A stretch of DNA of 63,904 nucleotides, the filler included, from Stramenopiles sp. TOSAG23-6 (Eukaryota): assembly GCA_900128565.1 (NCBI GenBank). It is 4 parts of 4 records of this genome, joined end to end, with 100 filler letters (N's around TTAATTAATTAA, not from the genome) between each part and the next. Parts side by side here need not be neighbours in the genome. Positions count along the whole stretch, not along the records: positions 52,469 to 63,904 come from LT636258.1; 3 more parts are not named here. The stretch is one strand, 5' to 3'. Position 1 is the first letter of the stretch. Every line of letters begins with the position of its first letter. The notes beneath the pieces are model-generated. The model saw only the letters and a list, made by a program, of their open reading frames with translations. It ran no database searches and was not told where the DNA came from. Below are positions 1 to 63,904 of the stretch, one piece after another. A program made the position numbers and the translations under genes.

Positions 1-32
1 CTGTATACTTTTGAAAATATTTTCTTCATCAT

Positions 33-3000
33 TCATGGTCCATCTTCACCTGCTTCAGCAATCGCACTCGCAGCTTCAAGTAGTTGAATTATTTCCGCAT
101 AACCATACTTTGAAGCAATAAGCAATGGGGTACTTCCATAATTATCAGCATGATTGACATCAGCACCCTTTTCAAGAAGTAGTTGAACTACTCCCTCAAA
201 ACCCTTTTGAGAAGAAATAAGCAATGGCGTAACTCCGTTTTGTTTAGGCTGATTGACATTTGCACCTTTACCAAGAAGTAATCGAACTACTCCAACATGA
301 CCAACCTCTGAAGCAATCCACAATGGGGTAATTCCATCCATTTGAGCAAGATTGACATCAGCACCATTAGCGAGAAGTAATTCAACAACTTCTGTATGAC
401 CCTTTTGAGAAGCAAACGTCAATGGTATCAACACATTATTATCCGGTATATGAACGTCTGCACCGCCTAGCAATAAAGCTTTCACAATTTCTATATAGCC
501 ATTTCCAGAAGCAAACATCAATGGTGTCCAATCATCATTAGCCTTTGCTTCAGTATTTGCATGGCGTTCCAATAAAGCATTCACAGTTGCTGTATGGCCC
601 TTTGAAGCAGCCCAGATTAATGATGTCCAGCCCTTATGATCCTTTGCTTCAATATCTGGACCACGTTTCAATAAAGCAATCACAGTATCTGTTTCGCCAT
701 TTACAGAAGCAGCCATCAATGATGTAGTCCCAATATTATCCTCTGCTTCAATATTTGCATCGCGATCCAATAAAGCATTCACAGTTTCTGTTTTTCCTTT
801 TTGAGAAGCAATCATCAACGACGTCCATCCAGCATCATTCTTTGCTTCAATTGCTACACGGCGTTCCAATAAAGCATTCACAATTGCTGTATTGCCCTTA
901 TCAGAAGCAGCCATCAATGCTGTCCAACCAGTATTAGAATTTGCATTAATATTTGCACCACGTTTCAATAAAGCTTTCACAGTTTCTGTTTGGCCACGAA
1001 AACAAGCAGTCATCAATGAAGTTACGCCATTATTATCCTTTGCTTCAATATTTGCACCTCGTTCCAATAAAGCAATTACAGTTGCTGTATGACCATTGTC
1101 GGAAGCAGCCATCAATGACGTCAAGTCATTATCATCTTTTGCCTCAACATTTGCACCGTGTTCCAATAAAGTAATCACAGTATCTGTATGACCATTTTGA
1201 GAAGCAACCATCAATAATGTGACATAATTAACATCATTAAAATAACTTTCATTTACATCAAATGCATTGGTTGATAACAATGTCTTCAAACGACCCTTTT
1301 GGCCCGTCGTAACATAGTCAAGGAGTTGTACAGATAATACTGTATTTTTGGCCTTCTGTCGCTCTATGGCATTCCGGACTCCTCTTGTTTCCAATGCAGT
1401 GGCATAGTCTAATGCAGTTTTACCATGGTGATCTTTTATATCAAGTTTTGCCCCATTTTGGAGCAGCTTATCCACCACCGCGCGATGGTTATCTTTTGCA
1501 GCAAGAATCAAAGCAGTTTCCATCGACTTGTTCTGAATGTCTACATTAGCATTTTGTCGTAGCAATTCATATACATCTCGTTTAATGCCACGAATTGCTG
1601 CTCTCATTAAAGCAGTGTTGCCGTCCACATCAACAGCATTAATATCTAAATCAACTTGCCCGGTCGCCTTGCTTTTATGGACAGAGGTATGCCCGCTTGT
1701 TTTACCCTGAAAATTATCCAATGCTGATTCATTTACACCAAGTTCAAGAGCAATTTTTCGAAAAATTTCTTTCTTATCTGCAGACAAAGTCGCATTCTTA
1801 CCATACTCAATAAGTGCTTTTGAAGCATACATAGTAAGTCCAACAGGAATACAAGTCATCATATATGAAATTGTATCAGCTTTTGATTCAAATGTGCCGT
1901 TCAAACCTGCCACACAGTACTCTACAGTCTTGATTCTACCTTGTAGGTCTGGAGAATTTCCTTCCATAGCTAAGACTTGCGCTTGTTGTAATAGATACAT
2001 CTTGTATGATTGATCGAGGTCGTCGCCACTTTGCACCACAAGGAGAACATTTCTCATTGCAGTTTGTCTCTTTTGTGTTGCAGTAAGTTGTTCAAGCTGT
2101 AATATTGTAGTTAGGTCACTAGATGGTTCTGGTGAAAGGATAGTAACAATATTTCGGTCAGAAACTGTGACATCATGTGTTTTTTCAGGTTCTAGTTCTG
2201 GTTCGGGTTCCACGTGTCCCATTGCTGCTAACGGCTTCAACCAATGATCAATTACATATTTACTGAGCTCCTTCTCCCATATTGGTTGCGTCTCAAATAT
2301 AAACAAACGAGTCTTTGTTCGAGAGATTGCAGTATACAGTATTCTCAACTCGTATTCCATTGCATCATAATATCCTTCCCGTCGTAATTTGTCTTCCGCT
2401 GATTCACTAGTAGTATTCAGTAAGTGCCTCCAACTATGTTTAATCTGCTCAACAGATGATGAAAAGAAATTTACGAGAATCACATTTTCATACTCCAGTC
2501 CTTTCGCATTGTGCAAACTCACAGTATTGATTTGTAGATTATCATTCGTGCCAGGCGATGATCCACGCAAGCTTGCATTACTTCCATTACGACTAAATAA
2601 TGGATCGTTCAAAAACACTTGACGTTCTGCCTCGGTACGAAAGATCAGTGTCGCATTTGGTGCATCACCCAAAGCTGTGCGCATGTCCTGTAATGTACGT
2701 GGATGCGCATAGCCCCATATTACAGGAGGTACACCTGTTACAATACCGGAATCTTCGACTGCATTTGTAAGTTTGAATTGTGTCCTCAGAAGATTCTTTA
2801 CATGATTACCCATTTCCACAACCCCACTACTATTGCGATAATTAGTTTTCAATGTCTTTGGTTCTTTTGTCTCAGCATCTAATTTTACACGAGAAGAATT
2901 CTCAGATTCAACAAAGTATAAAATATCCTTGACATCTTCAACACGAAACATTACACCAGGAACGAGCTGTTGCACAACATCCCCGGCAAGAGTAAGCCTA

Positions 3001-4664
3001 TTTGGATTATTCCCCACAAGACGTAAAAATAGTAAGATCATAGCCGATGTTACATCTTGCACTTCATCTACGTATATACGAGTGAACTCATCAGTAGCCG
3101 TGCCGAGATGTGACAACACACAGTCGCCAATGTCAAGCCAAATTGGTTTGTCCTTGCCACCAAGTGTATCAAATTCCTTACTTCGTTTGTATGATTCATA
3201 TACTTCATAGACCTTGAAAATGCTTTCCAATATTTCATCTGATTGAGTCGTATTTTTCTTTGCACTCTCTTTATACTCCTTAAGATTAAGTGCTCTTCCA
3301 TTCTTTGCTGCAAGCACAGATCCTTTGATAATATGTTGTATATGCGCCCACACAACACTTGCAGGTTCATTTAATGCCGACTCTTTGCTATTGACCTTTG
3401 CAAGACTTTTAAACTCATTAAAACGGCTGGCAAACATTTCTTCAGTCACAAATGTAGCTTCATCTGCGGCTCCAGTAACGGATTGATCGATTTGTGCAAA
3501 TATCATACGTTCAGCCATTCCCTCTTCCATCGGCATGAGTTCCTTTTTAGTCTCTCGGGTTAGGTTGAGACTTCTCGAAAAGTATATTTGTTTGGACGCT
3601 TGGCTAGGATCAAGGTGTGCAGGTAAAATATGTTCTGGTTCCGGTTCTAGTTCTGGTGCTAGCTCCAATTCTACTACTTCCGGCATTCTATCACTCTCAA
3701 TCATTAGTGATAAAAGAAGTACAGTTTTACCAGTACCAGGTGGTGCATTAAGAAACAGAAATTTGCCTGTGTTGTGGTCACGAATTTTCTCTTGCTCCTC
3801 CTTTAGCTCGAGAAGTGCACGATAATTGTCCTTTTTGGATTGTCTCTCAAAGTACATTGGGTTTCCATTCGGAACAAAATTATAGTGTCTCTGCGTTTGT
3901 GTAGCTGCTGCTGCTTGATCATCATCTGCAGCATCCATAATTCCTACAGAACCTGATAATATTGCCTGTTCCGTTAATTCAACATATTTTTGAGAGTCGT
4001 CCTTCGAGACAGATCCCGACGCTCTAGCAATATTCTTATGATGTGGTATAAATCTTGTGACATTTACGATGTTGTTGTCGTAAAGTTCAAACTCAAGCCT
4101 GGCACCACCATGCTTTTGCCCGATTCGAACTTTACGTATTCTTGCGTTCATACCATGATGACCTTGAACAGTGTTGGCATGACCACGGCTAAAATCTCCT
4201 TCACTTATATATTGTAAATGTTTAAAAAATGATTTCTTCGCTTCTTTTGTGGCTACATTGTTGATGAAGTCCAAGATGTCACCATTAACGCGAATCGTAT
4301 ATTGTGAAGTCGTGTTTTGTCTGTGTGACAACTCATTTTCATGCGGCAGCTCAATTTTTTTATCGAGAAAAACAGCGATTTCTTCTCCTTCAGGTTCTGG
4401 ATGATCAAGTGCAGATTCAGGTTCTGGATGGATAGGTTCCGGTTTAGTAACTTGATGTATGTCCTCTCTAGTGCTGGCATCAAGCCAGGCGTAAAAGTCA
4501 GTGGAACCTTGAGCTAATTGTAAGAGACTAATCCAGTCATCATTGTTCCCACTTGTTACCTGAGGTTTATGCCGTTTTTTCTTCTGTTTCTTCTTATTCC
4601 CCTTCTTGGATGCAATAACTATAATGCAGGTAACCATAAGAATCAGTATTATAATGGGTCTCAT
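33..4664 (-). CDS. TRANK1-like protein: N-terminal hydrophobic segment, RelE-like domain, UvrD-type SF1 helicase, long ankyrin array (mirror copy)
   Basis: Reverse complement of 12799..17430. Confidence 0.85.
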   Translation of the reverse strand: MRPIIILILMVTCIIVIASKKGNKKKQKKKRHKPQVTSGNNDDWISLLQLAQGSTDFYAWLDASTREDIHQVTKPEPIHPEPESALDHPEPEGEEIAVFLDKKIELPHENELSHRQNTTSQYTIRVNGDILDFINNVATKEAKKSFFKHLQYISEGDFSRGHANTVQGHHGMNARIRKVRIGQKHGGARLEFELYDNNIVNVTRFIPHHKNIARASGSVSKDDSQKYVELTEQAILSGSVGIMDAADDDQAAAATQTQRHYNFVPNGNPMYFERQSKKDNYRALLELKEEQEKIRDHNTGKFLFLNAPPGTGKTVLLLSLMIESDRMPEVVELELAPELEPEPEHILPAHLDPSQASKQIYFSRSLNLTRETKKELMPMEEGMAERMIFAQIDQSVTGAADEATFVTEEMFASRFNEFKSLAKVNSKESALNEPASVVWAHIQHIIKGSVLAAKNGRALNLKEYKESAKKNTTQSDEILESIFKVYEVYESYKRSKEFDTLGGKDKPIWLDIGDCVLSHLGTATDEFTRIYVDEVQDVTSAMILLFLRLVGNNPNRLTLAGDVVQQLVPGVMFRVEDVKDILYFVESENSSRVKLDAETKEPKTLKTNYRNSSGVVEMGNHVKNLLRTQFKLTNAVEDSGIVTGVPPVIWGYAHPRTLQDMRTALGDAPNATLIFRTEAERQVFLNDPLFSRNGSNASLRGSSPGTNDNLQINTVSLHNAKGLEYENVILVNFFSSSVEQIKHSWRHLLNTTSESAEDKLRREGYYDAMEYELRILYTAISRTKTRLFIFETQPIWEKELSKYVIDHWLKPLAAMGHVEPEPELEPEKTHDVTVSDRNIVTILSPEPSSDLTTILQLEQLTATQKRQTAMRNVLLVVQSGDDLDQSYKMYLLQQAQVLAMEGNSPDLQGRIKTVEYCVAGLNGTFESKADTISYMMTCIPVGLTMYASKALIEYGKNATLSADKKEIFRKIALELGVNESALDNFQGKTSGHTSVHKSKATGQVDLDINAVDVDGNTALMRAAIRGIKRDVYELLRQNANVDIQNKSMETALILAAKDNHRAVVDKLLQNGAKLDIKDHHGKTALDYATALETRGVRNAIERQKAKNTVLSVQLLDYVTTGQKGRLKTLLSTNAFDVNESYFNDVNYVTLLMVASQNGHTDTVITLLEHGANVEAKDDNDLTSLMAASDNGHTATVIALLERGANIEAKDNNGVTSLMTACFRGQTETVKALLKRGANINANSNTGWTALMAASDKGNTAIVNALLERRVAIEAKNDAGWTSLMIASQKGKTETVNALLDRDANIEAEDNIGTTSLMAASVNGETDTVIALLKRGPDIEAKDHKGWTSLIWAASKGHTATVNALLERHANTEAKANDDWTPLMFASGNGYIEIVKALLLGGADVHIPDNNVLIPLTFASQKGHTEVVELLLANGADVNLAQMDGITPLWIASEVGHVGVVRLLLGKGANVNQPKQNGVTPLLISSQKGFEGVVQLLLEKGADVNHADNYGSTPLLIASKYGYAEIIQLLEAASAIAEAGEDGP

Positions 4665-4833
4665 AATTGATATTTGGTAATGATATTTCCTTGAATGTTT
4701 CAGAACGAAGGACACGTACGCTGGGGGGCTTTGTGGTGGGTATGGTGCGCGCTGACTCGATCGATGTGGTATAGGAGTAAAACACGTATCTCGAAAAATC
4801 ACAAATATTGTTCTTTACTTATGTATTAAAATT

Positions 4834-6257
4834 TTATTTTTTTTCATTAAGCAAACTCTTCAATTCTTCACTGAAAAAATCCTCTGGTGACTCTCCCTCA
4901 TCGTCTTTTATTGTTGGATCTGCGCCAGCTTGGATTAGTAAAAGTGCAACTTGACTATGCTCACAGCAGCAAGCCATGTTGGTGAAAAAATATGCCACAC
5001 AAAAAAATCGTTAGGTATGGAATTTCGTACTAAAAAAAAAAAAAATCATCATGAAAACGTACATACTCAGTGGTGTGACACCAGTAGAATCCTTTGTATC
5101 AATTGTAGCCCCTCTTCGCAAACACAATTTTACAAGATTTAAATGCATTGTGAAAGAATACTTCAACAAATTAATTTTTTTTTCGTAAGTACAAAATTTG
5201 GTACAAAAAAATAAAAAAAAATCATTAGGTACAAAATATCGTACCAAAAAAAAATGAAAAACATGATGAAAACGTACATGACCTCGGTCACAAGACCAAT
5301 GAAGAACTGTCCCGCCATCGCCATCTTTTGCGTTTATATGTATTTTGGAAAAATATTTGAAATTTTTTTCGTTAGGTACAAAATTTCGTATGAAAAAACA
5401 ATTTCGAATTTGAAAAAAAATAAAACATACATCTGCGCCTTCATCAAGTAACTTTTCTACGGTAGATAAATCTCCATTACTTGCATAATAAAAAATATCC
5501 TTTTTAGAGTTATGATTTTCTTGTGTACTCGGATCAAATTGTAACGTACTTTGAACAGGACCCATTAGCCCCCCTTGTTTCTTTGTTTGAGTAGGGTTAG
5601 GGTTAGTGCTGGGTGGGACTTTTACGTTGGATAAATTATCTTTCATTAGCCCTTGTTTCTTTGTTTGAGTAGGGTTAGGGTTAGTACTGGGTGGGACTTT
5701 TACGTTGGATAAATTATCTTTCATATTATTATTTACAGCTAGTCTTTCGATTTGTTTTATATATAGTTCCATGTATTTTGGAAAAATATTTCAAAAAAAA
5801 AACGTTAGGTACGAAATTTCGTACGGAAAAAAAACTCGAAATTGAAAAAAAATAAAACATACATTGCTACATTTTGTGGCATATTTCCAAGAGCGAACCA
5901 GGCGTCAAACTTTGCGCGTGCACGAAATTCGAATAGTGCAGGTCGTTCGCCTGTACACTTTCCGTATTTAGACTGTTTGAAGAATGCATATAGCTGCAGT
6001 TGCTCTTCTGTCGAAATTGATGATATCAATCCTGCGTGTTTCACAGCAGCATCAAATCTGCTCTTAAGAAGATTGTCTTTCTTTTCATTTGATACTGCGG
6101 CATCTTTCGTTGTTTTGATCGCTTGGCGTTTTTTCGCTATTTTATGACGAAAATAATTCCAGAATACATACGATATAATAACACTAAATGTTGATGCTGC
6201 TACTGACTTACATGATAGCCACTCCAATACTATGTGTAAACGATCTTTGAGTAACAT
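4834..6257 (-). CDS. Acyl-CoA-binding domain + ankyrin repeat protein, ACBD6-like, 5 exons (mirror copy)
   Basis: Mirror of 11206..12629. Introns at 5771-5862, 5338-5430, 5143-5277, 4976-5062. Confidence 0.85.
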
Positions 6258-6700
6258 GACTGAATGCTTTTTCGTAAAATTTGTATGTGCTGGTATATCT
6301 AGTTAATATCGTCAAGGTTGGCTTTTCTTCAGCTCAGCGATCAGAATAGTATAGCCGCACACACAAGCTAACAACTTATATTTGAAAGGATGAACGACTG
6401 ATTATTTACCTATATATTCGTTGCGCGGCAATATTCGTTTTTAAATTTTTCAAAAGTAGAATTTCGATTTTTATCGATTTTTGGCGGTCACAAAATTTCT
6501 CCTTGACAGACGGAAGGAAGGAGGAACGACAGGAAATTAAGTATACAAGTAAAACTTTGCTAAAACTTTGTTCCCTTTGTTTTGGGCATTTATAGGATCA
6601 ATCAAAGAAAATTGTTCAAAGGACAAACCCTTTCACATTAACTCCTGTCAAGGATTCGTTTGAGAAGAAAGTAGGAGATAGAACAAATCCTATCGGTAGG

Positions 6701-7459
6701 ATGCCTGGAGCTCTGGAAATGTTTGAAAGGGAGCCTAGAGCAAAAAAAGAGGACACTGAAAATCCAATGCCTACTGGAGGTATGAATCTAGGTTTGAATG
6801 CAGGATTTCAATTAGGGGAGAATTCTGTAATAGGTAAAAGAACATGTATTGTAGTTGATATGCGTAATGGAGCGGCTGCACCAGCTACCTCAAACAAAAG
6901 TACAAAAAATTCAAAGTCAAAAAAAACTAATTCAGCAAAAGTTCCAGGTTGCTCGGATAAGGTTGAAGTAGGTTATTTTTTTCTTCTTTTGTCAGCGTTG
7001 CTTGTTTATATTGCAATCGGTATAATTGCAGGAAAACCAGGAAATGGTGATTTAAAGAAAAGTGTTCACTGTTGTGCTCCTTTTCACATAGTATTTGGGG
7101 CAATAGGTTGGTGGTTCCCGCCTCTTTTTCTTTTCTTTGTGTTTTATCAAATTGCCGATCATTATGGATTTTGGTGGAAAGAGCCTCTCTATCAATTTCA
7201 CGATGAACAAGAGAGTTGGATGGAAACTTTTACTGATGTATTAGAATATTTTGTTGGCCTTTTTCTTGTTGAAGTATGTCGATGGGTTCGTCCTTTACGT
7301 TTTAGTTGTATGAAACTTTGTTGGCTTCATTGGAGACGGACAGGTCGTTGTACTGACGCTCCTCCATTTTGTATTCACAACTGTTGCACATCTTGTGTTG
7401 ATCGTTTTGAAGATGTTCTTGAGGAACATACTGTTATTAAAGTGAAAGAAGTATCATAG
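6701..7459 (+). CDS. Hypothetical multi-pass membrane protein, intronless
   Basis: 252-aa ATG-started ORF with several hydrophobic segments and a Cys-rich C-terminus. Confidence 0.7.
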   Translation: MPGALEMFEREPRAKKEDTENPMPTGGMNLGLNAGFQLGENSVIGKRTCIVVDMRNGAAAPATSNKSTKNSKSKKTNSAKVPGCSDKVEVGYFFLLLSALLVYIAIGIIAGKPGNGDLKKSVHCCAPFHIVFGAIGWWFPPLFLFFVFYQIADHYGFWWKEPLYQFHDEQESWMETFTDVLEYFVGLFLVEVCRWVRPLRFSCMKLCWLHWRRTGRCTDAPPFCIHNCCTSCVDRFEDVLEEHTVIKVKEVS

Positions 7460-7616
7460 CAGTTGAAATGTGAAACTAATGTAATTGTTCCAAAAATGAG
7501 TGAGAAGTGTTGTTTACGTAGATTTAAATTTTTGGGAGTCAGTGCCACGTGTGACCAAATATTAATCCAGCTACTACAGGCCGGTACTCTACACTACAGT
7601 AGAAAAAAATAGAATT

Positions 7617-8731
7617 ATGACAAAATCTACTAGCACTTTTCAATGGTTAGCTGCTGCATCTGCTACTCTTACTATTGCTACAAGTATTTTCTATTTTTGG
7701 CAACGTAGAATTGCTAAAAAATATAAAAAGACGGAGGATATAGTTAATGGCGAGGCAATCTTTGTAAAAGAACGAATGACAATGATAATAACAACTTCAC
7801 CTACCCAGTCAAACCCCTCAACATCTCTGATTGAAGAACTGTTTCATTCATTTTCCTATGTACCTGAATTAAAGCACTGCCATAAAATTATTGTTTGTGA
7901 TGGCATAAAAATTGCTCACGAAGGTCGCAAGTCTAAATATCGTAGTGGAATCATTACAACCAAAGCTCTCGCGGCATACAACTTATACTTGAAAAAAATT
8001 CGTCAGCTCGCTACACGTGAGGAAGGTCAGTGGACAAATGTTCAGATTTTGGAACTAAATAATAGGAATGGTTTTGGTTTTGCTGTTAAAGAGGCACTAG
8101 AAAAGGTAAAAACTGACTATGTCATGGTCTGTCAACATGTACGTTTTCATCATTTTGATTTCAATTTTTTTTTTTGGTATGAAATTTTGTACCTAACGAT
8201 TTTTTTTTGACATTTTTTTTTTTCACACAACATGACCGACTATTTGGACAAAAATGGCACGGTTTGCCAATGACCCTTCGTGCTCTAGAAGCATTTCACG
8301 ACGAAGTTAGTTTTATTGGTCTGCCAACTAATTCTACACGTGATTATATTCATCGTATGCGTGTATGTTTTAATTTCAATTTTTTACATATTTTTTTTTT
8401 CGTACGAAATTTTGTACCTAACAAATTTTAGTTTTTTTTGAAATATTTTTTCACAATACATAGTCGATTTCATATCGATCTCTCAAAAAAGTGGAAGCAC
8501 TTTAAAGGTGGAGTAAAATTATTACCAATGCTCGTTTGGTTAGATAGTACTCATATAGCATCCGTTCAGTACTATAGAGATTTCGTGTTTAATAAAGATC
8601 GAAAATTGGTCTCAAAAGGTGGTTTTATGTATGTTTTCAATTTTTTTTTTTTTTTTTTTTAGTATGAAATTTTGTACATAAAAAAAAAAAAATTTAAAAT
8701 TATACGTAACAAAAAAAACGAATTCAAAAAA
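7617..8731 (+). CDS. Putative GT-A-fold glycosyltransferase-like protein, 3'-truncated at the fold-back axis
   Basis: N-terminal TM segment, then IITTSP, IIVCDG, GFGFAV and VMVCQHD motifs. Removing introns 8139-8233 and 8363-8461 (both GT..AT) gives a continuous frame. A third intron starts at 8629. Confidence 0.65.
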
Positions 8732-9846
8732 TTTTTTGAATTCGTTTTTTTTGTTACGTATAATTTTAAATTTTTTTTTTTTTATGTACAAAATTTCATA
8801 CTAAAAAAAAAAAAAAAAAAAATTGAAAACATACATAAAACCACCTTTTGAGACCAATTTTCGATCTTTATTAAACACGAAATCTCTATAGTACTGAACG
8901 GATGCTATATGAGTACTATCTAACCAAACGAGCATTGGTAATAATTTTACTCCACCTTTAAAGTGCTTCCACTTTTTTGAGAGATCGATATGAAATCGAC
9001 TATGTATTGTGAAAAAATATTTCAAAAAAAACTAAAATTTGTTAGGTACAAAATTTCGTACGAAAAAAAAAATATGTAAAAAATTGAAATTAAAACATAC
9101 ACGCATACGATGAATATAATCACGTGTAGAATTAGTTGGCAGACCAATAAAACTAACTTCGTCGTGAAATGCTTCTAGAGCACGAAGGGTCATTGGCAAA
9201 CCGTGCCATTTTTGTCCAAATAGTCGGTCATGTTGTGTGAAAAAAAAAAATGTCAAAAAAAAATCGTTAGGTACAAAATTTCATACCAAAAAAAAAAATT
9301 GAAATCAAAATGATGAAAACGTACATGTTGACAGACCATGACATAGTCAGTTTTTACCTTTTCTAGTGCCTCTTTAACAGCAAAACCAAAACCATTCCTA
9401 TTATTTAGTTCCAAAATCTGAACATTTGTCCACTGACCTTCCTCACGTGTAGCGAGCTGACGAATTTTTTTCAAGTATAAGTTGTATGCCGCGAGAGCTT
9501 TGGTTGTAATGATTCCACTACGATATTTAGACTTGCGACCTTCGTGAGCAATTTTTATGCCATCACAAACAATAATTTTATGGCAGTGCTTTAATTCAGG
9601 TACATAGGAAAATGAATGAAACAGTTCTTCAATCAGAGATGTTGAGGGGTTTGACTGGGTAGGTGAAGTTGTTATTATCATTGTCATTCGTTCTTTTACA
9701 AAGATTGCCTCGCCATTAACTATATCCTCCGTCTTTTTATATTTTTTAGCAATTCTACGTTGCCAAAAATAGAAAATACTTGTAGCAATAGTAAGAGTAG
9801 CAGATGCAGCAGCTAACCATTGAAAAGTGCTAGTAGATTTTGTCAT
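8732..9846 (-). CDS. Mirror copy of the putative glycosyltransferase-like gene
   Basis: Reverse complement of 7617..8731. Confidence 0.65.
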
Positions 9847-10003
9847 AATTCTATTTTTTTCTACTGTAGTGTAGAGTACCGGCCTGTAGTAGCTGGATTA
9901 ATATTTGGTCACACGTGGCACTGACTCCCAAAAATTTAAATCTACGTAAACAACACTTCTCACTCATTTTTGGAACAATTACATTAGTTTCACATTTCAA
10001 CTG

Positions 10004-10762
10004 CTATGATACTTCTTTCACTTTAATAACAGTATGTTCCTCAAGAACATCTTCAAAACGATCAACACAAGATGTGCAACAGTTGTGAATACAAAATGGA
10101 GGAGCGTCAGTACAACGACCTGTCCGTCTCCAATGAAGCCAACAAAGTTTCATACAACTAAAACGTAAAGGACGAACCCATCGACATACTTCAACAAGAA
10201 AAAGGCCAACAAAATATTCTAATACATCAGTAAAAGTTTCCATCCAACTCTCTTGTTCATCGTGAAATTGATAGAGAGGCTCTTTCCACCAAAATCCATA
10301 ATGATCGGCAATTTGATAAAACACAAAGAAAAGAAAAAGAGGCGGGAACCACCAACCTATTGCCCCAAATACTATGTGAAAAGGAGCACAACAGTGAACA
10401 CTTTTCTTTAAATCACCATTTCCTGGTTTTCCTGCAATTATACCGATTGCAATATAAACAAGCAACGCTGACAAAAGAAGAAAAAAATAACCTACTTCAA
10501 CCTTATCCGAGCAACCTGGAACTTTTGCTGAATTAGTTTTTTTTGACTTTGAATTTTTTGTACTTTTGTTTGAGGTAGCTGGTGCAGCCGCTCCATTACG
10601 CATATCAACTACAATACATGTTCTTTTACCTATTACAGAATTCTCCCCTAATTGAAATCCTGCATTCAAACCTAGATTCATACCTCCAGTAGGCATTGGA
10701 TTTTCAGTGTCCTCTTTTTTTGCTCTAGGCTCCCTTTCAAACATTTCCAGAGCTCCAGGCAT
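10004..10762 (-). CDS. Mirror copy of the hypothetical membrane protein
   Basis: Reverse complement of 6701..7459. Confidence 0.7.
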   Translation of the reverse strand: MPGALEMFEREPRAKKEDTENPMPTGGMNLGLNAGFQLGENSVIGKRTCIVVDMRNGAAAPATSNKSTKNSKSKKTNSAKVPGCSDKVEVGYFFLLLSALLVYIAIGIIAGKPGNGDLKKSVHCCAPFHIVFGAIGWWFPPLFLFFVFYQIADHYGFWWKEPLYQFHDEQESWMETFTDVLEYFVGLFLVEVCRWVRPLRFSCMKLCWLHWRRTGRCTDAPPFCIHNCCTSCVDRFEDVLEEHTVIKVKEVS

Positions 10763-11205
10763 CCTACCGATAGGATTTGTTCTATCTCCTACTTTCTTCT
10801 CAAACGAATCCTTGACAGGAGTTAATGTGAAAGGGTTTGTCCTTTGAACAATTTTCTTTGATTGATCCTATAAATGCCCAAAACAAAGGGAACAAAGTTT
10901 TAGCAAAGTTTTACTTGTATACTTAATTTCCTGTCGTTCCTCCTTCCTTCCGTCTGTCAAGGAGAAATTTTGTGACCGCCAAAAATCGATAAAAATCGAA
11001 ATTCTACTTTTGAAAAATTTAAAAACGAATATTGCCGCGCAACGAATATATAGGTAAATAATCAGTCGTTCATCCTTTCAAATATAAGTTGTTAGCTTGT
11101 GTGTGCGGCTATACTATTCTGATCGCTGAGCTGAAGAAAAGCCAACCTTGACGATATTAACTAGATATACCAGCACATACAAATTTTACGAAAAAGCATT
11201 CAGTC

Positions 11206-12629
11206 ATGTTACTCAAAGATCGTTTACACATAGTATTGGAGTGGCTATCATGTAAGTCAGTAGCAGCATCAACATTTAGTGTTATTATATCGTATGTATT
11301 CTGGAATTATTTTCGTCATAAAATAGCGAAAAAACGCCAAGCGATCAAAACAACGAAAGATGCCGCAGTATCAAATGAAAAGAAAGACAATCTTCTTAAG
11401 AGCAGATTTGATGCTGCTGTGAAACACGCAGGATTGATATCATCAATTTCGACAGAAGAGCAACTGCAGCTATATGCATTCTTCAAACAGTCTAAATACG
11501 GAAAGTGTACAGGCGAACGACCTGCACTATTCGAATTTCGTGCACGCGCAAAGTTTGACGCCTGGTTCGCTCTTGGAAATATGCCACAAAATGTAGCAAT
11601 GTATGTTTTATTTTTTTTCAATTTCGAGTTTTTTTTCCGTACGAAATTTCGTACCTAACGTTTTTTTTTTGAAATATTTTTCCAAAATACATGGAACTAT
11701 ATATAAAACAAATCGAAAGACTAGCTGTAAATAATAATATGAAAGATAATTTATCCAACGTAAAAGTCCCACCCAGTACTAACCCTAACCCTACTCAAAC
11801 AAAGAAACAAGGGCTAATGAAAGATAATTTATCCAACGTAAAAGTCCCACCCAGCACTAACCCTAACCCTACTCAAACAAAGAAACAAGGGGGGCTAATG
11901 GGTCCTGTTCAAAGTACGTTACAATTTGATCCGAGTACACAAGAAAATCATAACTCTAAAAAGGATATTTTTTATTATGCAAGTAATGGAGATTTATCTA
12001 CCGTAGAAAAGTTACTTGATGAAGGCGCAGATGTATGTTTTATTTTTTTTCAAATTCGAAATTGTTTTTTCATACGAAATTTTGTACCTAACGAAAAAAA
12101 TTTCAAATATTTTTCCAAAATACATATAAACGCAAAAGATGGCGATGGCGGGACAGTTCTTCATTGGTCTTGTGACCGAGGTCATGTACGTTTTCATCAT
12201 GTTTTTCATTTTTTTTTGGTACGATATTTTGTACCTAATGATTTTTTTTTATTTTTTTGTACCAAATTTTGTACTTACGAAAAAAAAATTAATTTGTTGA
12301 AGTATTCTTTCACAATGCATTTAAATCTTGTAAAATTGTGTTTGCGAAGAGGGGCTACAATTGATACAAAGGATTCTACTGGTGTCACACCACTGAGTAT
12401 GTACGTTTTCATGATGATTTTTTTTTTTTTTAGTACGAAATTCCATACCTAACGATTTTTTTGTGTGGCATATTTTTTCACCAACATGGCTTGCTGCTGT
12501 GAGCATAGTCAAGTTGCACTTTTACTAATCCAAGCTGGCGCAGATCCAACAATAAAAGACGATGAGGGAGAGTCACCAGAGGATTTTTTCAGTGAAGAAT
12601 TGAAGAGTTTGCTTAATGAAAAAAAATAA
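11206..12629 (+). CDS. Acyl-CoA-binding domain + ankyrin repeat protein, ACBD6-like, 5 exons
   Basis: ACBP motif LQLYAFFKQ...RAKFDAW...AM|ELYI. Ankyrin repeats GAD|INAKDGDGGTVLHWSCDRGH|LNLVKL...TPLSM|ACCCEH are restored by removing introns 11601-11692, 12033-12125, 12186-12320 and 12401-12487. Confidence 0.88.
11601..11692 (+). mobile_element. Introner-like intron, GT..AT (representative family member)
   Basis: AT|GTATGTTTT...CCGTACGAAATTTCGTACCTAACG...GAAATATTTTTCCAAAATACAT|G. Removal restores the ACBP segment VAMELYI. Confidence 0.85.
12033..12125 (+). mobile_element. Introner-like intron, GT..AT
   Basis: Same family motifs. Removal restores ankyrin GADINAKD. Confidence 0.85.
12186..12320 (+). 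mobile_element. Introner-like intron with duplicated core, GT..AT
   Basis: Two GTAC..ATTTTGTACYTA cores. Removal restores RGHLNLVKL. Confidence 0.8.
12401..12487 (+). mobile_element. Introner-like intron, GT..AT
   Basis: Removal restores TPLSMACC. Confidence 0.8.
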
Positions 12630-12798
12630 AATTTTAATACATAAGTAAAGAACAATATTTGTGATTTTTCGAGATACGTGTTTTACTCCTATACCACATC
12701 GATCGAGTCAGCGCGCACCATACCCACCACAAAGCCCCCCAGCGTACGTGTCCTTCGTTCTGAAACATTCAAGGAAATATCATTACCAAATATCAATT

Positions 12799-15700
12799 AT
12801 GAGACCCATTATAATACTGATTCTTATGGTTACCTGCATTATAGTTATTGCATCCAAGAAGGGGAATAAGAAGAAACAGAAGAAAAAACGGCATAAACCT
12901 CAGGTAACAAGTGGGAACAATGATGACTGGATTAGTCTCTTACAATTAGCTCAAGGTTCCACTGACTTTTACGCCTGGCTTGATGCCAGCACTAGAGAGG
13001 ACATACATCAAGTTACTAAACCGGAACCTATCCATCCAGAACCTGAATCTGCACTTGATCATCCAGAACCTGAAGGAGAAGAAATCGCTGTTTTTCTCGA
13101 TAAAAAAATTGAGCTGCCGCATGAAAATGAGTTGTCACACAGACAAAACACGACTTCACAATATACGATTCGCGTTAATGGTGACATCTTGGACTTCATC
13201 AACAATGTAGCCACAAAAGAAGCGAAGAAATCATTTTTTAAACATTTACAATATATAAGTGAAGGAGATTTTAGCCGTGGTCATGCCAACACTGTTCAAG
13301 GTCATCATGGTATGAACGCAAGAATACGTAAAGTTCGAATCGGGCAAAAGCATGGTGGTGCCAGGCTTGAGTTTGAACTTTACGACAACAACATCGTAAA
13401 TGTCACAAGATTTATACCACATCATAAGAATATTGCTAGAGCGTCGGGATCTGTCTCGAAGGACGACTCTCAAAAATATGTTGAATTAACGGAACAGGCA
13501 ATATTATCAGGTTCTGTAGGAATTATGGATGCTGCAGATGATGATCAAGCAGCAGCAGCTACACAAACGCAGAGACACTATAATTTTGTTCCGAATGGAA
13601 ACCCAATGTACTTTGAGAGACAATCCAAAAAGGACAATTATCGTGCACTTCTCGAGCTAAAGGAGGAGCAAGAGAAAATTCGTGACCACAACACAGGCAA
13701 ATTTCTGTTTCTTAATGCACCACCTGGTACTGGTAAAACTGTACTTCTTTTATCACTAATGATTGAGAGTGATAGAATGCCGGAAGTAGTAGAATTGGAG
13801 CTAGCACCAGAACTAGAACCGGAACCAGAACATATTTTACCTGCACACCTTGATCCTAGCCAAGCGTCCAAACAAATATACTTTTCGAGAAGTCTCAACC
13901 TAACCCGAGAGACTAAAAAGGAACTCATGCCGATGGAAGAGGGAATGGCTGAACGTATGATATTTGCACAAATCGATCAATCCGTTACTGGAGCCGCAGA
14001 TGAAGCTACATTTGTGACTGAAGAAATGTTTGCCAGCCGTTTTAATGAGTTTAAAAGTCTTGCAAAGGTCAATAGCAAAGAGTCGGCATTAAATGAACCT
14101 GCAAGTGTTGTGTGGGCGCATATACAACATATTATCAAAGGATCTGTGCTTGCAGCAAAGAATGGAAGAGCACTTAATCTTAAGGAGTATAAAGAGAGTG
14201 CAAAGAAAAATACGACTCAATCAGATGAAATATTGGAAAGCATTTTCAAGGTCTATGAAGTATATGAATCATACAAACGAAGTAAGGAATTTGATACACT
14301 TGGTGGCAAGGACAAACCAATTTGGCTTGACATTGGCGACTGTGTGTTGTCACATCTCGGCACGGCTACTGATGAGTTCACTCGTATATACGTAGATGAA
14401 GTGCAAGATGTAACATCGGCTATGATCTTACTATTTTTACGTCTTGTGGGGAATAATCCAAATAGGCTTACTCTTGCCGGGGATGTTGTGCAACAGCTCG
14501 TTCCTGGTGTAATGTTTCGTGTTGAAGATGTCAAGGATATTTTATACTTTGTTGAATCTGAGAATTCTTCTCGTGTAAAATTAGATGCTGAGACAAAAGA
14601 ACCAAAGACATTGAAAACTAATTATCGCAATAGTAGTGGGGTTGTGGAAATGGGTAATCATGTAAAGAATCTTCTGAGGACACAATTCAAACTTACAAAT
14701 GCAGTCGAAGATTCCGGTATTGTAACAGGTGTACCTCCTGTAATATGGGGCTATGCGCATCCACGTACATTACAGGACATGCGCACAGCTTTGGGTGATG
14801 CACCAAATGCGACACTGATCTTTCGTACCGAGGCAGAACGTCAAGTGTTTTTGAACGATCCATTATTTAGTCGTAATGGAAGTAATGCAAGCTTGCGTGG
14901 ATCATCGCCTGGCACGAATGATAATCTACAAATCAATACTGTGAGTTTGCACAATGCGAAAGGACTGGAGTATGAAAATGTGATTCTCGTAAATTTCTTT
15001 TCATCATCTGTTGAGCAGATTAAACATAGTTGGAGGCACTTACTGAATACTACTAGTGAATCAGCGGAAGACAAATTACGACGGGAAGGATATTATGATG
15101 CAATGGAATACGAGTTGAGAATACTGTATACTGCAATCTCTCGAACAAAGACTCGTTTGTTTATATTTGAGACGCAACCAATATGGGAGAAGGAGCTCAG
15201 TAAATATGTAATTGATCATTGGTTGAAGCCGTTAGCAGCAATGGGACACGTGGAACCCGAACCAGAACTAGAACCTGAAAAAACACATGATGTCACAGTT
15301 TCTGACCGAAATATTGTTACTATCCTTTCACCAGAACCATCTAGTGACCTAACTACAATATTACAGCTTGAACAACTTACTGCAACACAAAAGAGACAAA
15401 CTGCAATGAGAAATGTTCTCCTTGTGGTGCAAAGTGGCGACGACCTCGATCAATCATACAAGATGTATCTATTACAACAAGCGCAAGTCTTAGCTATGGA
15501 AGGAAATTCTCCAGACCTACAAGGTAGAATCAAGACTGTAGAGTACTGTGTGGCAGGTTTGAACGGCACATTTGAATCAAAAGCTGATACAATTTCATAT
15601 ATGATGACTTGTATTCCTGTTGGACTTACTATGTATGCTTCAAAAGCACTTATTGAGTATGGTAAGAATGCGACTTTGTCTGCAGATAAGAAAGAAATTT

Positions 15701-17430
15701 TTCGAAAAATTGCTCTTGAACTTGGTGTAAATGAATCAGCATTGGATAATTTTCAGGGTAAAACAAGCGGGCATACCTCTGTCCATAAAAGCAAGGCGAC
15801 CGGGCAAGTTGATTTAGATATTAATGCTGTTGATGTGGACGGCAACACTGCTTTAATGAGAGCAGCAATTCGTGGCATTAAACGAGATGTATATGAATTG
15901 CTACGACAAAATGCTAATGTAGACATTCAGAACAAGTCGATGGAAACTGCTTTGATTCTTGCTGCAAAAGATAACCATCGCGCGGTGGTGGATAAGCTGC
16001 TCCAAAATGGGGCAAAACTTGATATAAAAGATCACCATGGTAAAACTGCATTAGACTATGCCACTGCATTGGAAACAAGAGGAGTCCGGAATGCCATAGA
16101 GCGACAGAAGGCCAAAAATACAGTATTATCTGTACAACTCCTTGACTATGTTACGACGGGCCAAAAGGGTCGTTTGAAGACATTGTTATCAACCAATGCA
16201 TTTGATGTAAATGAAAGTTATTTTAATGATGTTAATTATGTCACATTATTGATGGTTGCTTCTCAAAATGGTCATACAGATACTGTGATTACTTTATTGG
16301 AACACGGTGCAAATGTTGAGGCAAAAGATGATAATGACTTGACGTCATTGATGGCTGCTTCCGACAATGGTCATACAGCAACTGTAATTGCTTTATTGGA
16401 ACGAGGTGCAAATATTGAAGCAAAGGATAATAATGGCGTAACTTCATTGATGACTGCTTGTTTTCGTGGCCAAACAGAAACTGTGAAAGCTTTATTGAAA
16501 CGTGGTGCAAATATTAATGCAAATTCTAATACTGGTTGGACAGCATTGATGGCTGCTTCTGATAAGGGCAATACAGCAATTGTGAATGCTTTATTGGAAC
16601 GCCGTGTAGCAATTGAAGCAAAGAATGATGCTGGATGGACGTCGTTGATGATTGCTTCTCAAAAAGGAAAAACAGAAACTGTGAATGCTTTATTGGATCG
16701 CGATGCAAATATTGAAGCAGAGGATAATATTGGGACTACATCATTGATGGCTGCTTCTGTAAATGGCGAAACAGATACTGTGATTGCTTTATTGAAACGT
16801 GGTCCAGATATTGAAGCAAAGGATCATAAGGGCTGGACATCATTAATCTGGGCTGCTTCAAAGGGCCATACAGCAACTGTGAATGCTTTATTGGAACGCC
16901 ATGCAAATACTGAAGCAAAGGCTAATGATGATTGGACACCATTGATGTTTGCTTCTGGAAATGGCTATATAGAAATTGTGAAAGCTTTATTGCTAGGCGG
17001 TGCAGACGTTCATATACCGGATAATAATGTGTTGATACCATTGACGTTTGCTTCTCAAAAGGGTCATACAGAAGTTGTTGAATTACTTCTCGCTAATGGT
17101 GCTGATGTCAATCTTGCTCAAATGGATGGAATTACCCCATTGTGGATTGCTTCAGAGGTTGGTCATGTTGGAGTAGTTCGATTACTTCTTGGTAAAGGTG
17201 CAAATGTCAATCAGCCTAAACAAAACGGAGTTACGCCATTGCTTATTTCTTCTCAAAAGGGTTTTGAGGGAGTAGTTCAACTACTTCTTGAAAAGGGTGC
17301 TGATGTCAATCATGCTGATAATTATGGAAGTACCCCATTGCTTATTGCTTCAAAGTATGGTTATGCGGAAATAATTCAACTACTTGAAGCTGCGAGTGCG
17401 ATTGCTGAAGCAGGTGAAGATGGACCATGA
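12799..17430 (+). CDS. TRANK1-like protein: N-terminal hydrophobic segment, RelE-like domain, UvrD-type SF1 helicase, long ankyrin array; intronless
   Basis: SF1 motifs APPGTGKT, IYVDEVQD, AGDVVQQ, LKTNYRNS, HNAKGLEY, LYTAISRTK. More than 15 ankyrin repeats. The first ATG is at 12799 (MRPIIILILMV); the ORF track starts earlier at a GTG. Confidence 0.85.
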   Translation: MRPIIILILMVTCIIVIASKKGNKKKQKKKRHKPQVTSGNNDDWISLLQLAQGSTDFYAWLDASTREDIHQVTKPEPIHPEPESALDHPEPEGEEIAVFLDKKIELPHENELSHRQNTTSQYTIRVNGDILDFINNVATKEAKKSFFKHLQYISEGDFSRGHANTVQGHHGMNARIRKVRIGQKHGGARLEFELYDNNIVNVTRFIPHHKNIARASGSVSKDDSQKYVELTEQAILSGSVGIMDAADDDQAAAATQTQRHYNFVPNGNPMYFERQSKKDNYRALLELKEEQEKIRDHNTGKFLFLNAPPGTGKTVLLLSLMIESDRMPEVVELELAPELEPEPEHILPAHLDPSQASKQIYFSRSLNLTRETKKELMPMEEGMAERMIFAQIDQSVTGAADEATFVTEEMFASRFNEFKSLAKVNSKESALNEPASVVWAHIQHIIKGSVLAAKNGRALNLKEYKESAKKNTTQSDEILESIFKVYEVYESYKRSKEFDTLGGKDKPIWLDIGDCVLSHLGTATDEFTRIYVDEVQDVTSAMILLFLRLVGNNPNRLTLAGDVVQQLVPGVMFRVEDVKDILYFVESENSSRVKLDAETKEPKTLKTNYRNSSGVVEMGNHVKNLLRTQFKLTNAVEDSGIVTGVPPVIWGYAHPRTLQDMRTALGDAPNATLIFRTEAERQVFLNDPLFSRNGSNASLRGSSPGTNDNLQINTVSLHNAKGLEYENVILVNFFSSSVEQIKHSWRHLLNTTSESAEDKLRREGYYDAMEYELRILYTAISRTKTRLFIFETQPIWEKELSKYVIDHWLKPLAAMGHVEPEPELEPEKTHDVTVSDRNIVTILSPEPSSDLTTILQLEQLTATQKRQTAMRNVLLVVQSGDDLDQSYKMYLLQQAQVLAMEGNSPDLQGRIKTVEYCVAGLNGTFESKADTISYMMTCIPVGLTMYASKALIEYGKNATLSADKKEIFRKIALELGVNESALDNFQGKTSGHTSVHKSKATGQVDLDINAVDVDGNTALMRAAIRGIKRDVYELLRQNANVDIQNKSMETALILAAKDNHRAVVDKLLQNGAKLDIKDHHGKTALDYATALETRGVRNAIERQKAKNTVLSVQLLDYVTTGQKGRLKTLLSTNAFDVNESYFNDVNYVTLLMVASQNGHTDTVITLLEHGANVEAKDDNDLTSLMAASDNGHTATVIALLERGANIEAKDNNGVTSLMTACFRGQTETVKALLKRGANINANSNTGWTALMAASDKGNTAIVNALLERRVAIEAKNDAGWTSLMIASQKGKTETVNALLDRDANIEAEDNIGTTSLMAASVNGETDTVIALLKRGPDIEAKDHKGWTSLIWAASKGHTATVNALLERHANTEAKANDDWTPLMFASGNGYIEIVKALLLGGADVHIPDNNVLIPLTFASQKGHTEVVELLLANGADVNLAQMDGITPLWIASEVGHVGVVRLLLGKGANVNQPKQNGVTPLLISSQKGFEGVVQLLLEKGADVNHADNYGSTPLLIASKYGYAEIIQLLEAASAIAEAGEDGP

Positions 17431-17462
17431 ATGATGAAGAAAATATTTTCAAAAGTATACAG

Positions 17463-17562
17463 NNNNNNNNNNNNNNNNNNNNNNNNNNNNNNNNNNNNNN
17501 NNNNNNTTAATTAATTAANNNNNNNNNNNNNNNNNNNNNNNNNNNNNNNNNNNNNNNNNNNN
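17463..17562. other. Artificial contig linker (N44-TTAATTAATTAA-N44)
   Basis: Six-frame stop spacer, repeated at 34971-35070 and 52369-52468. Confidence 0.98.
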
Positions 17563-32434: not shown

Positions 32435-33033
32435 ATGGGAGCTTGTTGTAGTAGAAAAACTATGAATGTAAGTTTATATGTATATCCCTACATCTTTCTC
32501 GTATTTTCCCCCAGAACATAACTTCAACTGGCGTCATAGATGTTGTACTGGAATTCTTCAAAGTCAGTGTTGTTTTACTCTCACTCTCTGAAGCTCTTTG
32601 TTTATCTCTCCCATTTGTTTCATTTCAAAATATATAAATTGAAATAATGCAGAGAGGAAAGAAGATCAAGTCTTTATTGTAGTTACTCACTATACTCTGA
32701 AATATATGAATTGTTCAAAATGTAAAGGCTAACAGTATTTTATTCAACATTCTATATCACTTTTATTTTAGGGTAACCCCATCATGTACGTTTCATCATG
32801 AATTTATTAATTTATTTTTTTTTCATACGAAATTTCGTACCTAACGATTTTTTCATGATTTCGTGTTTTTTTCACAATACATGGTCGGAAGCTCCGGTGG
32901 AGATTGCGGTGGTAGAAATTATGGTTTAATTGAAGCACCATATTCAAATACAATAATACTTCCTATGACAATGTTATACCTACCATCGCACAAACTTTTG
33001 TTTACCTTAGGTAGATGCTCCTTGATACCTTAG
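32435..33033 (+). CDS. Small multi-exon protein with dual acylation-like N-terminus (MGACCS); exon structure uncertain
   Basis: ATG GGA GCT TGT TGT AGT, a canonical GTAAG donor at 32468, a TAG acceptor at 32771, a 14-nt exon, family intron 32786-32882 (GT..AT), and a last exon ending at TAG 33033. Confidence 0.45.
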
Positions 33034-33953: not shown

Positions 33954-34050
33954 GTATTTTTTATTTTTTTTTACAAAAAAATCGAATTTTTTTTTATAGT
34001 AAATTTTGTACCTAACGATTTTTTTTTTGAAATATTTTTCCAAAAAGCAT

Positions 34051-61944: not shown

Positions 61945-63231
61945 ATGATACCTCATGCATTGTTATTGATTCCTGTGATCACACTTCATGCATTTAATAG
62001 TGATTTCAATTTGAATACTTTTTGCGTTTTTTCTCGTGACTTGAGTTCAAAATCGGTTGTTCAAAAAGTTACTTTATTTGGCGAACAGAACACTTCATTT
62101 ATAAAAGATGGTTCAAATCCAGAGCTTGTTGACTCTGTTATTCATGCAACTAGAATATATCGTAGAGATCAATGTGAGCGCCGGAAAGGTCATCGTTGGA
62201 TTGAACGAATAAAAACAGAGGACGCGTGGCAATCGATGATTCAAAAACAATTCGAATTCGTCCACGCATCACCACAAAAGAGACATGCCTGGATATTTGA
62301 GTTGGCAGAAAACGTGAATGTCTCATCGTTACTTCCACAATGGGTCAAAGTAACCGAGGGCGCATCATTCCACCATTTTGGACGAATTCGTCATTCAAGT
62401 AGTAAAAGACGACAACTTGATGAAGCAGACGATCCAAACGCGACTCCACGAAAAAAAGGAATTGGCTTTTATACACTTTATCTTACTTTTGAACATGCTG
62501 TATCTTTAGCAAAAACTACACCGAATGCATGGTATAGTGCATTCCCATTACCAAATAGTTTTAAAATGTCAGCAGAATTGTTAGCTCATACAGCAGAGGC
62601 AGGAAATTGGTATACTTTAATTAATGATCCAACAGATAATTCATTACCAAGTAATCACTGGAAGCATTCCCTTGATATTGACGTTCAACTTACTCCTGAC
62701 TTTATCCATGGTACACATGACAAAGAAGCAAAAATGGCTGTAGATTTATGGAACAAACAACTTAAGGATGACGGTGTGAAAGGCCGATGGTTCACTTCAG
62801 GTAGAGATTTAATGTACGATTTCATTTGAATTTCAACTTGGAATTTTTTTTACTATGAAAATTCTGTACCTAACAAAAAAAATTAGTATTTTTTTCACAA
62901 TACATTTCTGGCAAAGATTTTTCTAGAAAAGAATGGGAAATGATAATTACACCTTTATTACGTGTATGTTTTTATTGAAACATTTTTTTTTATTACAATT
63001 TTTTTTTATTTAGGTACAAAATTTCGTATGAAAAAAAAACTTTTTTAAAAAATTCATATAAAGATCATAACAAATTTTTATTTCAAATTTAAAATATTTT
63101 CCTACAATACATGACCATCGTGTGCTCTCTATTGAGCCTAGTCAAAATTTCCATTTATCGAATCAATATGCAGCTTGGGTGACTCAAAGTGGTGTACAAG
63201 ATTCTTTTCAAACGTATTCCAATGGATTGAC
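61945..63231 (+). CDS. N-terminal exons of a secreted subtilase-like (Kp43/TagA-like) protein
   Basis: Signal peptide. Introns 62814-62905 and 62964-63112 (GT..AT) give ...SIEPSQNFHLSNQYAAWVTQSG...NGLT, the usual prodomain/catalytic boundary. Confidence 0.55.
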
Positions 63232-63320
63232 GTATGTTTTATTTTTTTTTTTTTTTTGTACGAAATTTTGTACCTAACAAATTTTCAAATTTTTTTTTGA
63301 AATATTTTTCCAAAATGCAT

Positions 63321-63817
63321 GGTAAAACATTACTTGCTAAAGCTGTTGCATCAGATGCAGCAGCACATTTCTTGACTGTATCCCTCAGCCGTTTAGTTCA
63401 TTCTGGTGTAGGTCAATCATCAAAAGCAATTCGCGATTTATTTGACTCTGCCAGTCGTTGTCAGCCTGCAGTCATATTTTTAGATGAAATTGATGCAGTC
63501 TTTGGGAAACGTGGCGGAGATCAACATGGAAGTCAACTTGTTTCTCAATTACTTTTAGAATTTGAGAATATTGCATATATACGTTTTCATTATGAATTTT
63601 AATTTATTTTTTTTTTTTTGAAAATTTTGTACCTAACAAATTTTAGTTTTTTTTTTTTAAATATTTTTTCACAATATAAAGACAACGTCAATCTCCAGAT
63701 AAAAATATATCTGTAACTGTCCTTGCGGCAACGAATAGACCATGGGCTTTAGACTCTGCGCTCTTTTCACCCGGACGTTTTGATCGTATTATTTATATTG
63801 GATTACCTGATGTTATT
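63321..63817 (+). CDS. AAA+ ATPase (CDC48/SPATA5/NVL-like), internal exons
   Basis: [39 protein letters not shown]. Intron 63579-63679; next intron from 63818. Confidence 0.85.
63579..63679 (+). mobile_element. Introner-like intron with AT..AA termini
   Basis: ATACGTTTTC...GTACCTAAC...AAATATTTTTTCACAATATAA. Alignment to the family consensus and the AAA reading frame give the same boundaries. Confidence 0.7.
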
Positions 63818-63904
63818 GTATGTTTTATTTTTTTTCAAATTCTAGTTTTGTTTTTTATAAAAATTTTGTACCTAACAAATTTAAGTTTTTTTTTTTGAAA
63901 TATT

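Follow-up and report, generated by a model that had tools for sequence, protein, structure and literature searches.

Introners are short introns without coding capacity that occur in many near-identical copies in unrelated genes. Those of Amoebophrya have inverted repeats of 8-20 nt, direct repeats of 3-5 nt and no preferred end dinucleotides, and those of Aureococcus have canonical splice motifs according to the discussion in the Amoebophrya paper (excerpts of PMC7789003, PMC12130899). Physarum has U12 introns with an altered branch motif; their inverted repeats and TA direct repeat point to a transposon origin, and the end pairs GT-AT and AT-AA are common among them (bioRxiv 10.1101/2020.10.12.336362, in part). 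For U12-type introns, GT-AT and AT-AA belong to a small set of end pairs reported to be workable, and both have been catalogued in this type (PMC1557818, in part). In euglenids, nonconventional and intermediate introns form a non-GT-AG majority class with pairable ends and ongoing gain with direct repeats at the junctions; their signature is a CAG/CTG pairing of positions +4..+6 with -8..-6 together with variable terminal bases (excerpts of PMC12501133, PMC4770533). A large majority of hemistasiid diplonemid introns lack GT-AG; their ends can base-pair, are G/C-rich and show no dominant dinucleotide, with each combination below 12% (excerpt of PMC12621601). A search of the full-text literature, with most subscription journals and all supplements outside its scope, turned up no description of an intron family with GT..AT ends. 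Single-cell genomes of marine stramenopiles are the subject of one paper that touches on introns only briefly and describes no unusual splice sites in the accessible main text (PMC5778133), and introns are unmentioned in the accessible part of a paper on a cultured relative (PMC12614181).

The window, that is, the whole stretch of 63,904 nucleotides analysed here, contains such a GT..AT family and within it one deviating copy, an AT..AA intron in an AAA ATPase gene. The features of this region are, by coordinate and strand:

62814..62905 (+): family intron GT..AT, absent from an RNA contig; junction ambiguous owing to a repeated AT
62964..63112 (+): family intron GT..AT with the internal module reversed (TTAGGTAC..CGTATG)
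63232..63320 (+): family 'intron' that misses the frame by 1 nt; aberrant P-loop on removal
63321..63578 (+): AAA ATPase exon D, with GKT of Walker A at its start and Walker B (FLDEID) within, ending ...ENIAY
63579..63679 (+): AT..AA family intron, 101 nt, phase 0, between TAT (Y) and AGA (R)
63579..63587 (+): 5' motif ATACGTTTT, 8/9 match to GTACGTTTT; sole A at +1 among 33 copies
63583..63698 (+): GT..AG intron of the ab initio public gene model P0242, which loses RQRQSPD and gains IH
63629..63637 (+): internal family module GTACCTAAC, with a branch-site-like CTAAC, 43 nt before the 3' end
63670..63679 (+): 3' motif CACAATATAA, 8/10 match to CACAATACAT; T at -3, A at -1
63680..63817 (+): AAA exon E, including VLAATNRP and ending ...GLPDVI; colinear with homologue P0264 (RERQ...VLAATNRP)
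63818..63904 (+): next family intron (GTATGTTTT...), truncated by the end of the window

Inspection of the sequence gave the donor and acceptor letters at 63579-63587 and 63670-63679 as in the original prediction. Exon D ends with ...ATTGCATAT (...GCATAT) at 63578, the intron begins with ATACGTTTTC, and exon E begins with AGACAACG (AGACAA) at 63680, directly after the intron end CACAATATAA. Compared with the family 5' motif GTAYGTTTT, ATACGTTTT, which follows ..AT, has its sole mismatch at +1. Within the 3' motif CA(C/A)AATAYAT, the T at -3 is shared with five other copies, and the A at -1 is unique. The internal module (..TTTTGTACCTAAC..) and the T runs of the family are present, and the 101 nt lie within the family length of ~90-140 nt. 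When 31 copies are aligned, both ends of the intron and its internal module fall into register, and only at +1, -3 and -1 does it depart from a normal family member. Its ends, AT and AA, are neither the GT or GC nor the AG of U2-type introns; CTAAC and long T runs are present as a candidate branch site and pyrimidine tract, but the module is inverted in a sister intron (62964-63112), and in another one an RNA contig skips an AG located downstream of CTAAC. The AT..AA intron is confirmed as a sequence feature.

The family table comprises 33 unique introns by coordinate, with only one arm of each palindrome (see below) counted. At the 5' end, 31 have GT, one has AT (63579-63679) and one GA. The 3' dinucleotide is AT in 27, AG in three and AA (63579-63679), TT and GT in one each, and the intron is the only copy with AT..AA. 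The family consensus on which the original prediction relied is genuine. Position -3 is C in 27 and T in six copies. The last exon base before the intron is T in 29/33, and the penultimate one is A in 22/33. Host genes include those for adenylosuccinate lyase, ABCF1, an acyl-CoA dehydrogenase and an ankyrin/UvrD-like protein, besides the AAA gene. The window has 45 occurrences of the internal motif GTACCTAACAA (at most one mismatch), with 1.26 expected; the 3' 10-mer alone (at most two mismatches) was not above chance, with 116 against 105.6 expected. An Rfam scan of the window had no match. A scan of metagenome contigs for the internal motif yielded three unrelated loci of 38-44% GC that lacked the family ends. 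Two small runs of one sample, possibly its source, contain the stretch, and parts of it were matched in poly(A) metatranscriptomes and seawater metagenomes from other studies. Copies of the family are very numerous, also in RNA libraries. Thousands of contigs, with a very high total depth, fell on the intron cores (63192-63399 and others) in each of three data sets: the source run, a seawater DNA run independent of it and a poly(A) RNA library.

Judged from its 5' motif, CTAAC-like module and T runs, the family looks spliceosomal. The CTAAC of the module is no obligatory branch site, since intron 62964-63112 has the module in reverse orientation. One intron, 37960-38178 (+), contains three tandem internal modules. 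Two others, 52809-52712 and 52711-52593 (-), stand head to tail with zero exon bases between them, and neither single nor joint removal gives a clean frame. A second intron without GT at its start, 23455-23345 (-), begins with GAATGTTTT and ends in ..AAAACGT, a 3' end that no other copy shares; when it is removed at consensus length, frames stay open over 279 and 114 nt. Both non-GT-start introns, AT..AA and GA..GT, carry a rare 3' dinucleotide, a coincidence with a chance of (3/33)x(2/32) = 0.006. This joint oddity fits either a coupling of the ends or plain decay of both.

The family is introner-like in kind. The non-canonical introners of Amoebophrya and those of Aureococcus and Micromonas are the closest described systems, and the uniform GT..AT ends set the family apart. 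The occurrence of 33 near-identical copies in unrelated genes, the short length and the missing coding capacity are shared, and the short inverted-repeat ends and a short direct repeat overlapping the exon/intron borders may be a further likeness (excerpts of PMC7789003, PMC12130899). This overlap makes the exact cut ambiguous. In contrast to the Amoebophrya introners, the inverted repeat (ATGTA..TACAT) is only ~5 nt and the direct repeat 2 nt long. The latter is present in 19/33 copies, in which the flanking exon dinucleotide equals the last two intron bases; cuts at GT..AT, TG..CA or AT..AC therefore result in the same mRNA. Intron 63579-63679 does not have this repeat (AT versus AA). With euglenid introns the family has in common the non-GT-AG majority, pairable ends and direct repeats at junctions, but its terminal bases are conserved. 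It resembles hemistasiid introns in the frequent lack of GT-AG and the pairable ends, and differs from them in the uniformity of the ends.

An affinity of the host to diplonemids or other euglenozoans was rejected on the basis of the ABCF1 and adenylosuccinate lyase matches and of the stramenopile label of an identical gene model. The nearest named matches of ABCF1 are from stramenopiles and animals with 47-58% identity (most 51-58%). The top structures for adenylosuccinate lyase, which we take to be bacterial PurB, had E values of ~1e-108 versus 1e-60 to 1e-64 for 4mx2 and 4efc, presumably the trypanosomatid enzymes. The gene model identical over exon D bears the label of a marine stramenopile group. 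The host lineage is probably a marine stramenopile.

In U2-type AT-AC introns of yeast and mammals, the first and the last intron base interact, and the compensating pair for a +1 G>A change is A with C. A change of the last base also accompanies the +1 G>A change in intron 63579-63679. Here, however, A is combined with A, and the family norm of G with T is itself a non-standard pair for the major spliceosome.

Family introns are removed from RNA at non-AG 3' ends. In RNA contig X12 record 9, the segments 62677-62811 and 62904-62964 lie at adjacent record positions, with 92 nt skipped. The AG at 62885-62886 (+), 11 nt after CTAAC, was bypassed, and the joint lies 18 nt beyond, at ..ACAT; AG is hence not preferred. 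In X5 record 23, 62727-62811 is followed by 63112-63231 with 59 record letters in between, which would represent a small exon. The same library also contains an unspliced contig, record 24 (62775-62991), over the neighbouring introns. Comparison with homologues pointed in the same direction as X12 record 9. In adenylosuccinate lyase all four family introns join at conserved residues (GYI/SQGY, FQRD/LSDS, VMRK/YDVE and SLRN/EIPD). In ABCF1 two of three do so, a GT..AT and a GT..AG intron; the third, 30439-30339, contains Ns and gives no information. Five of these six homology-confirmed introns are non-AG.

Removal at consensus length joined the longest frames in 26/33 copies against ~11 by chance. 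The seven exceptions are 33954-34050, 40138-40251, 63232-63320, 30439-30339, 32786-32882, which may lie in a UTR, and the two adjoining twins at 52809-52593. As these introns fail the frame test or are ambiguous in it, assembly joins through the repeat may be unreliable. The misfit is one base each for 33954-34050 (+), 40138-40251 (+) and 30439-30339 (-; with Ns), and the cause is either that cut sites vary or that the assembly was joined through the repeat. Within the AAA gene, joining 63113-63231 past 63232-63320 would create a P-loop of ..SNGLT + GKT, versus G-x-x-G-x before GKT in 69/69 relatives whose match begins at GKT. None of 150 AAA relatives had a match left of 63232, and a search for orthologues of the upstream exons 61951-62811 gave no match. 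The contig may here connect two separate genes wrongly by way of the repeated intron; alternatively, it may lack an exon.

Exon D covers positions 10-94 of the Pfam AAA profile (E 1.2e-21) and exon E positions 100-131 (E 6.1e-07); the best PDB matches of exon D are VAT, Cdc48, Rix7 and Afg2. Excision of exactly 63579-63679 unites the Walker B exon in frame with the VLAATNRP exon, as had been claimed. Among five 3' offsets tried, the proposed one alone joins two long frames, 348 nt upstream and 216 nt downstream; with the others, the open frames measure at most 36 nt. A shift of both cuts by 1 or 2 nt to the left creates the stop GCA TAA, and neither left-shifted span is among the listed stop-free in-frame junctions of this locus. 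The frame is thus open only with a cut before +1 and after -1. The nearest homologue, P0264, is 72% identical to exon D. It is a 260-aa ORF on a 914-nt contig and hence uninterrupted at the corresponding site. At the junction, ENIAY/RQRQ aligns without a gap with EDLVF RERQ of P0264 (...LLLEFEDLVF RERQ...VLAATNRP). Nine in-frame junction models were aligned to P0264. The proposed junction had the top score of 442 and the eight others 422-437, a modest margin of 5 to 20 score units against a single homologue, at a site where the AAA fold has a loop that varies in length.

The preferred reading, to which we assign a probability of about one half, is that 63579-63679 is a genuine high-copy intron of the introner type, which a spliceosome with relaxed end requirements most likely still excises exactly at 63579/63679. 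The family consists of high-copy, transposon-like, short T-rich introns of a marine protist, probably a stramenopile. Its normal architecture is an exon ending in ..(A)T, followed by GTAYGTTTT, an arm rich in T, the module CGTACGAAATTTTGTACCTAAC, a run of T, (C/A)AATAYAT and the next exon. The copy in the AAA gene carries G+1>A, the common variant C-3>T, and T-1>A, and its removal would join TAT to AGA in phase 0. The cut of the RNA at 63578/63680 is predicted, and so is the machinery, presumably a spliceosome that is less strict about the terminal bases. The claim of an AT..AA intron stands as far as family membership, two non-canonical ends and exact removal as the best solution by frame and homology are concerned; the use of GCATAT/AGACAA in mRNA is a prediction.

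The likeliest alternative is that nothing unusual is spliced: the A at 63579 would be an amplification or base-call error, or the allele would be crippled and retain its intron. The assembly is of a kind in which this could happen. It is of the single-cell type, with many Ns and perfect zero-spacer inverted repeats at 1-17462 (8731-nt arms) and 34968-52471 (8752-nt arms), and its depth is very uneven, with 338 in the left contig and ~5 over exon D. Zero-spacer palindromes are a mark of single-cell whole-genome amplification and represent amplification chimeras; the two mean that ~17.5 kb of the window is duplicate. Linkers of the form N44-TTAATTAATTAA-N44 near 17463-17562, 34971-35070 and 52369-52468 mark concatenated contigs. 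Two-unit TTAGGG/CCCTAA motifs at ~11750-11765, 37590-37605 and 43205-43220 are located inside repeats, not at contig ends.

Bases at both intron ends were checked in contigs of four runs, RNA and DNA, compared with the window. Only one contig, from the source run (X1 record 7, 63307-63590), extends over base 63579, which is A there at a k-mer depth of 5.24 with no other letters; in the independent DNA run X3, the bin 63504-63607 that includes this base is uncovered. No RNA contig of the four runs crosses 63578/63680 or lies on 63400-63607. The sole RNA-library contig at the 3' end, X5 record 27 (63649-63759), is from a separate run and colinear with the DNA, in agreement with a retained intron; it may be unspliced RNA or DNA. 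This contig is identical through CACAATATAA and differs solely at 63706 and 63709, both third-position and synonymous differences between strains in exon E (2/2, only two sites). A base-call error does not explain the odd 3' end, since it is unchanged in a separate run; it is real and common to a diverged strain, as the identity persists despite two exon differences. Of the two ends that were to be confirmed in reads, the 3' end was corroborated independently, and the A at 63579 only by the run from which it came. A 5' error would, moreover, have to strike the one intron with a unique last base, which has a chance of ~1 in 33. An error or a crippled allele is unlikely on this evidence. From one of 33 copies, we infer that the +1 G may be dispensable in splicing; the original prediction had put this forward, and it stays at this level because no RNA contig lies on 63400-63607 and the A is from the source run alone.

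A different view concerns the machinery. The protist may splice most of its introns with a non-G last base, with GT..AT as the norm and AT..AA as a working variant, either by a transformed U12-like expansion or by an AG-independent major spliceosome, and first and last bases would change together. We regard this as quite unlikely. The end pairs agree with those of the U12-dependent spliceosome (AT-AC, GT-AG, AT-AN, GT-AT; PMC1557818, in part): the copy has AT-AA and the family norm is GT-AT, the likeness that also links the window family to the Physarum introns (bioRxiv 10.1101/2020.10.12.336362, in part). Because the minor spliceosome tolerates exactly these pairs, the family may represent a transposon-driven U12-like expansion with new 5' and branch motifs. 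The motifs of U12 introns, however, are absent from 63579-63679. It has ATACGTTT instead of the 5' motif RTATCCTT, with no TCCTT in the span, and lacks the branch motif TCCTTRAC ~10-15 nt from the 3' end; the nearest look-alike, ACCTAAC, belongs to the CTAAC-like module 43 nt upstream of that end. The original statement that there is no U12 signature therefore holds for the motifs, with neither TCCTT nor ATATCC in the span, but not for the end pairs, which are reported as workable for this spliceosome.

Loss of the +1 G could also have activated cryptic sites, with the GT at 63583 combined with the AT at 63677 (95 nt) or with the AG at 63697-63698 (116 nt), so that a few loop residues would differ. 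Both are among the many further in-frame junctions near the intron, which the original prediction did not mention, and are stop-free. The junction is situated in a loop of variable length, AG is usable in the organism (3/33 family introns), and the public gene model P0242 has chosen the GT..AG version. Against P0264, however, the two score lower, with 435 for 63583..63677 and 422, the lowest of the nine models, for 63583..63698. The GT..AG version, which uses the sole in-frame GT..AG pair of the locus, also removes RQRQ, whereas P0264 retains RERQ. The 5' context of the cryptic site, C/GTTTTC, is a poor match to GTAYGTTTT, and the bypassed AG at 62885-62886 in the neighbouring intron speaks against a preference for AG. 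P0242 at 63321-63904 (+) imposes the intron 63583-63698 and then reads through into the next family intron; it is therefore a prediction and was rejected as transcript evidence. We consider the use of cryptic sites very doubtful.

It is highly improbable that a euglenid-like pairing of the ends (GTA with TAC plus flanking AT) guides removal and that C-3>T rescued G+1>A, as A:U via G:U: the ends form a short inverted repeat, +1 and -3 are a standard pair in 31/31 aligned copies (GC 25, GU 5, AU 1) and end pairing is predicted above 0.75 in 5/25 folded copies, but covariation is not above column composition (81.2% paired cells versus a shuffled mean of 83.1%, with 469/500 shuffles as high), the lone A at +1 would meet a T at -3 by chance in 6/31 cases, A+3>T is uncompensated and +3:-5 unpaired in 10/31 cells, and the CAG/CTG signature of Euglena, set in from the ends, is absent. 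The covariation-kept pairing that characterises euglenozoan nonconventional introns was likewise not found. As there is no covariation above shuffles and the predicted end-pairing probability is 0.00 for 63579-63679 and low in most copies, structure-guided removal is a minor rival to excision by a spliceosome with relaxed ends.

If the intron is spliced as proposed, neither a first G nor a fixed last base would be strictly required in this lineage. Most copies allow three equivalent placements of the cuts; 63579-63679 is the sole copy in the window that reveals the cut positions. With 27/33 sampled introns ending in AT, the family contradicts the assumption of GT-AG gene finders. Since gene finders of this type model the genome wrongly, such genes would be missing or garbled in protein sets and in introner surveys that rely on GT-AG annotation.
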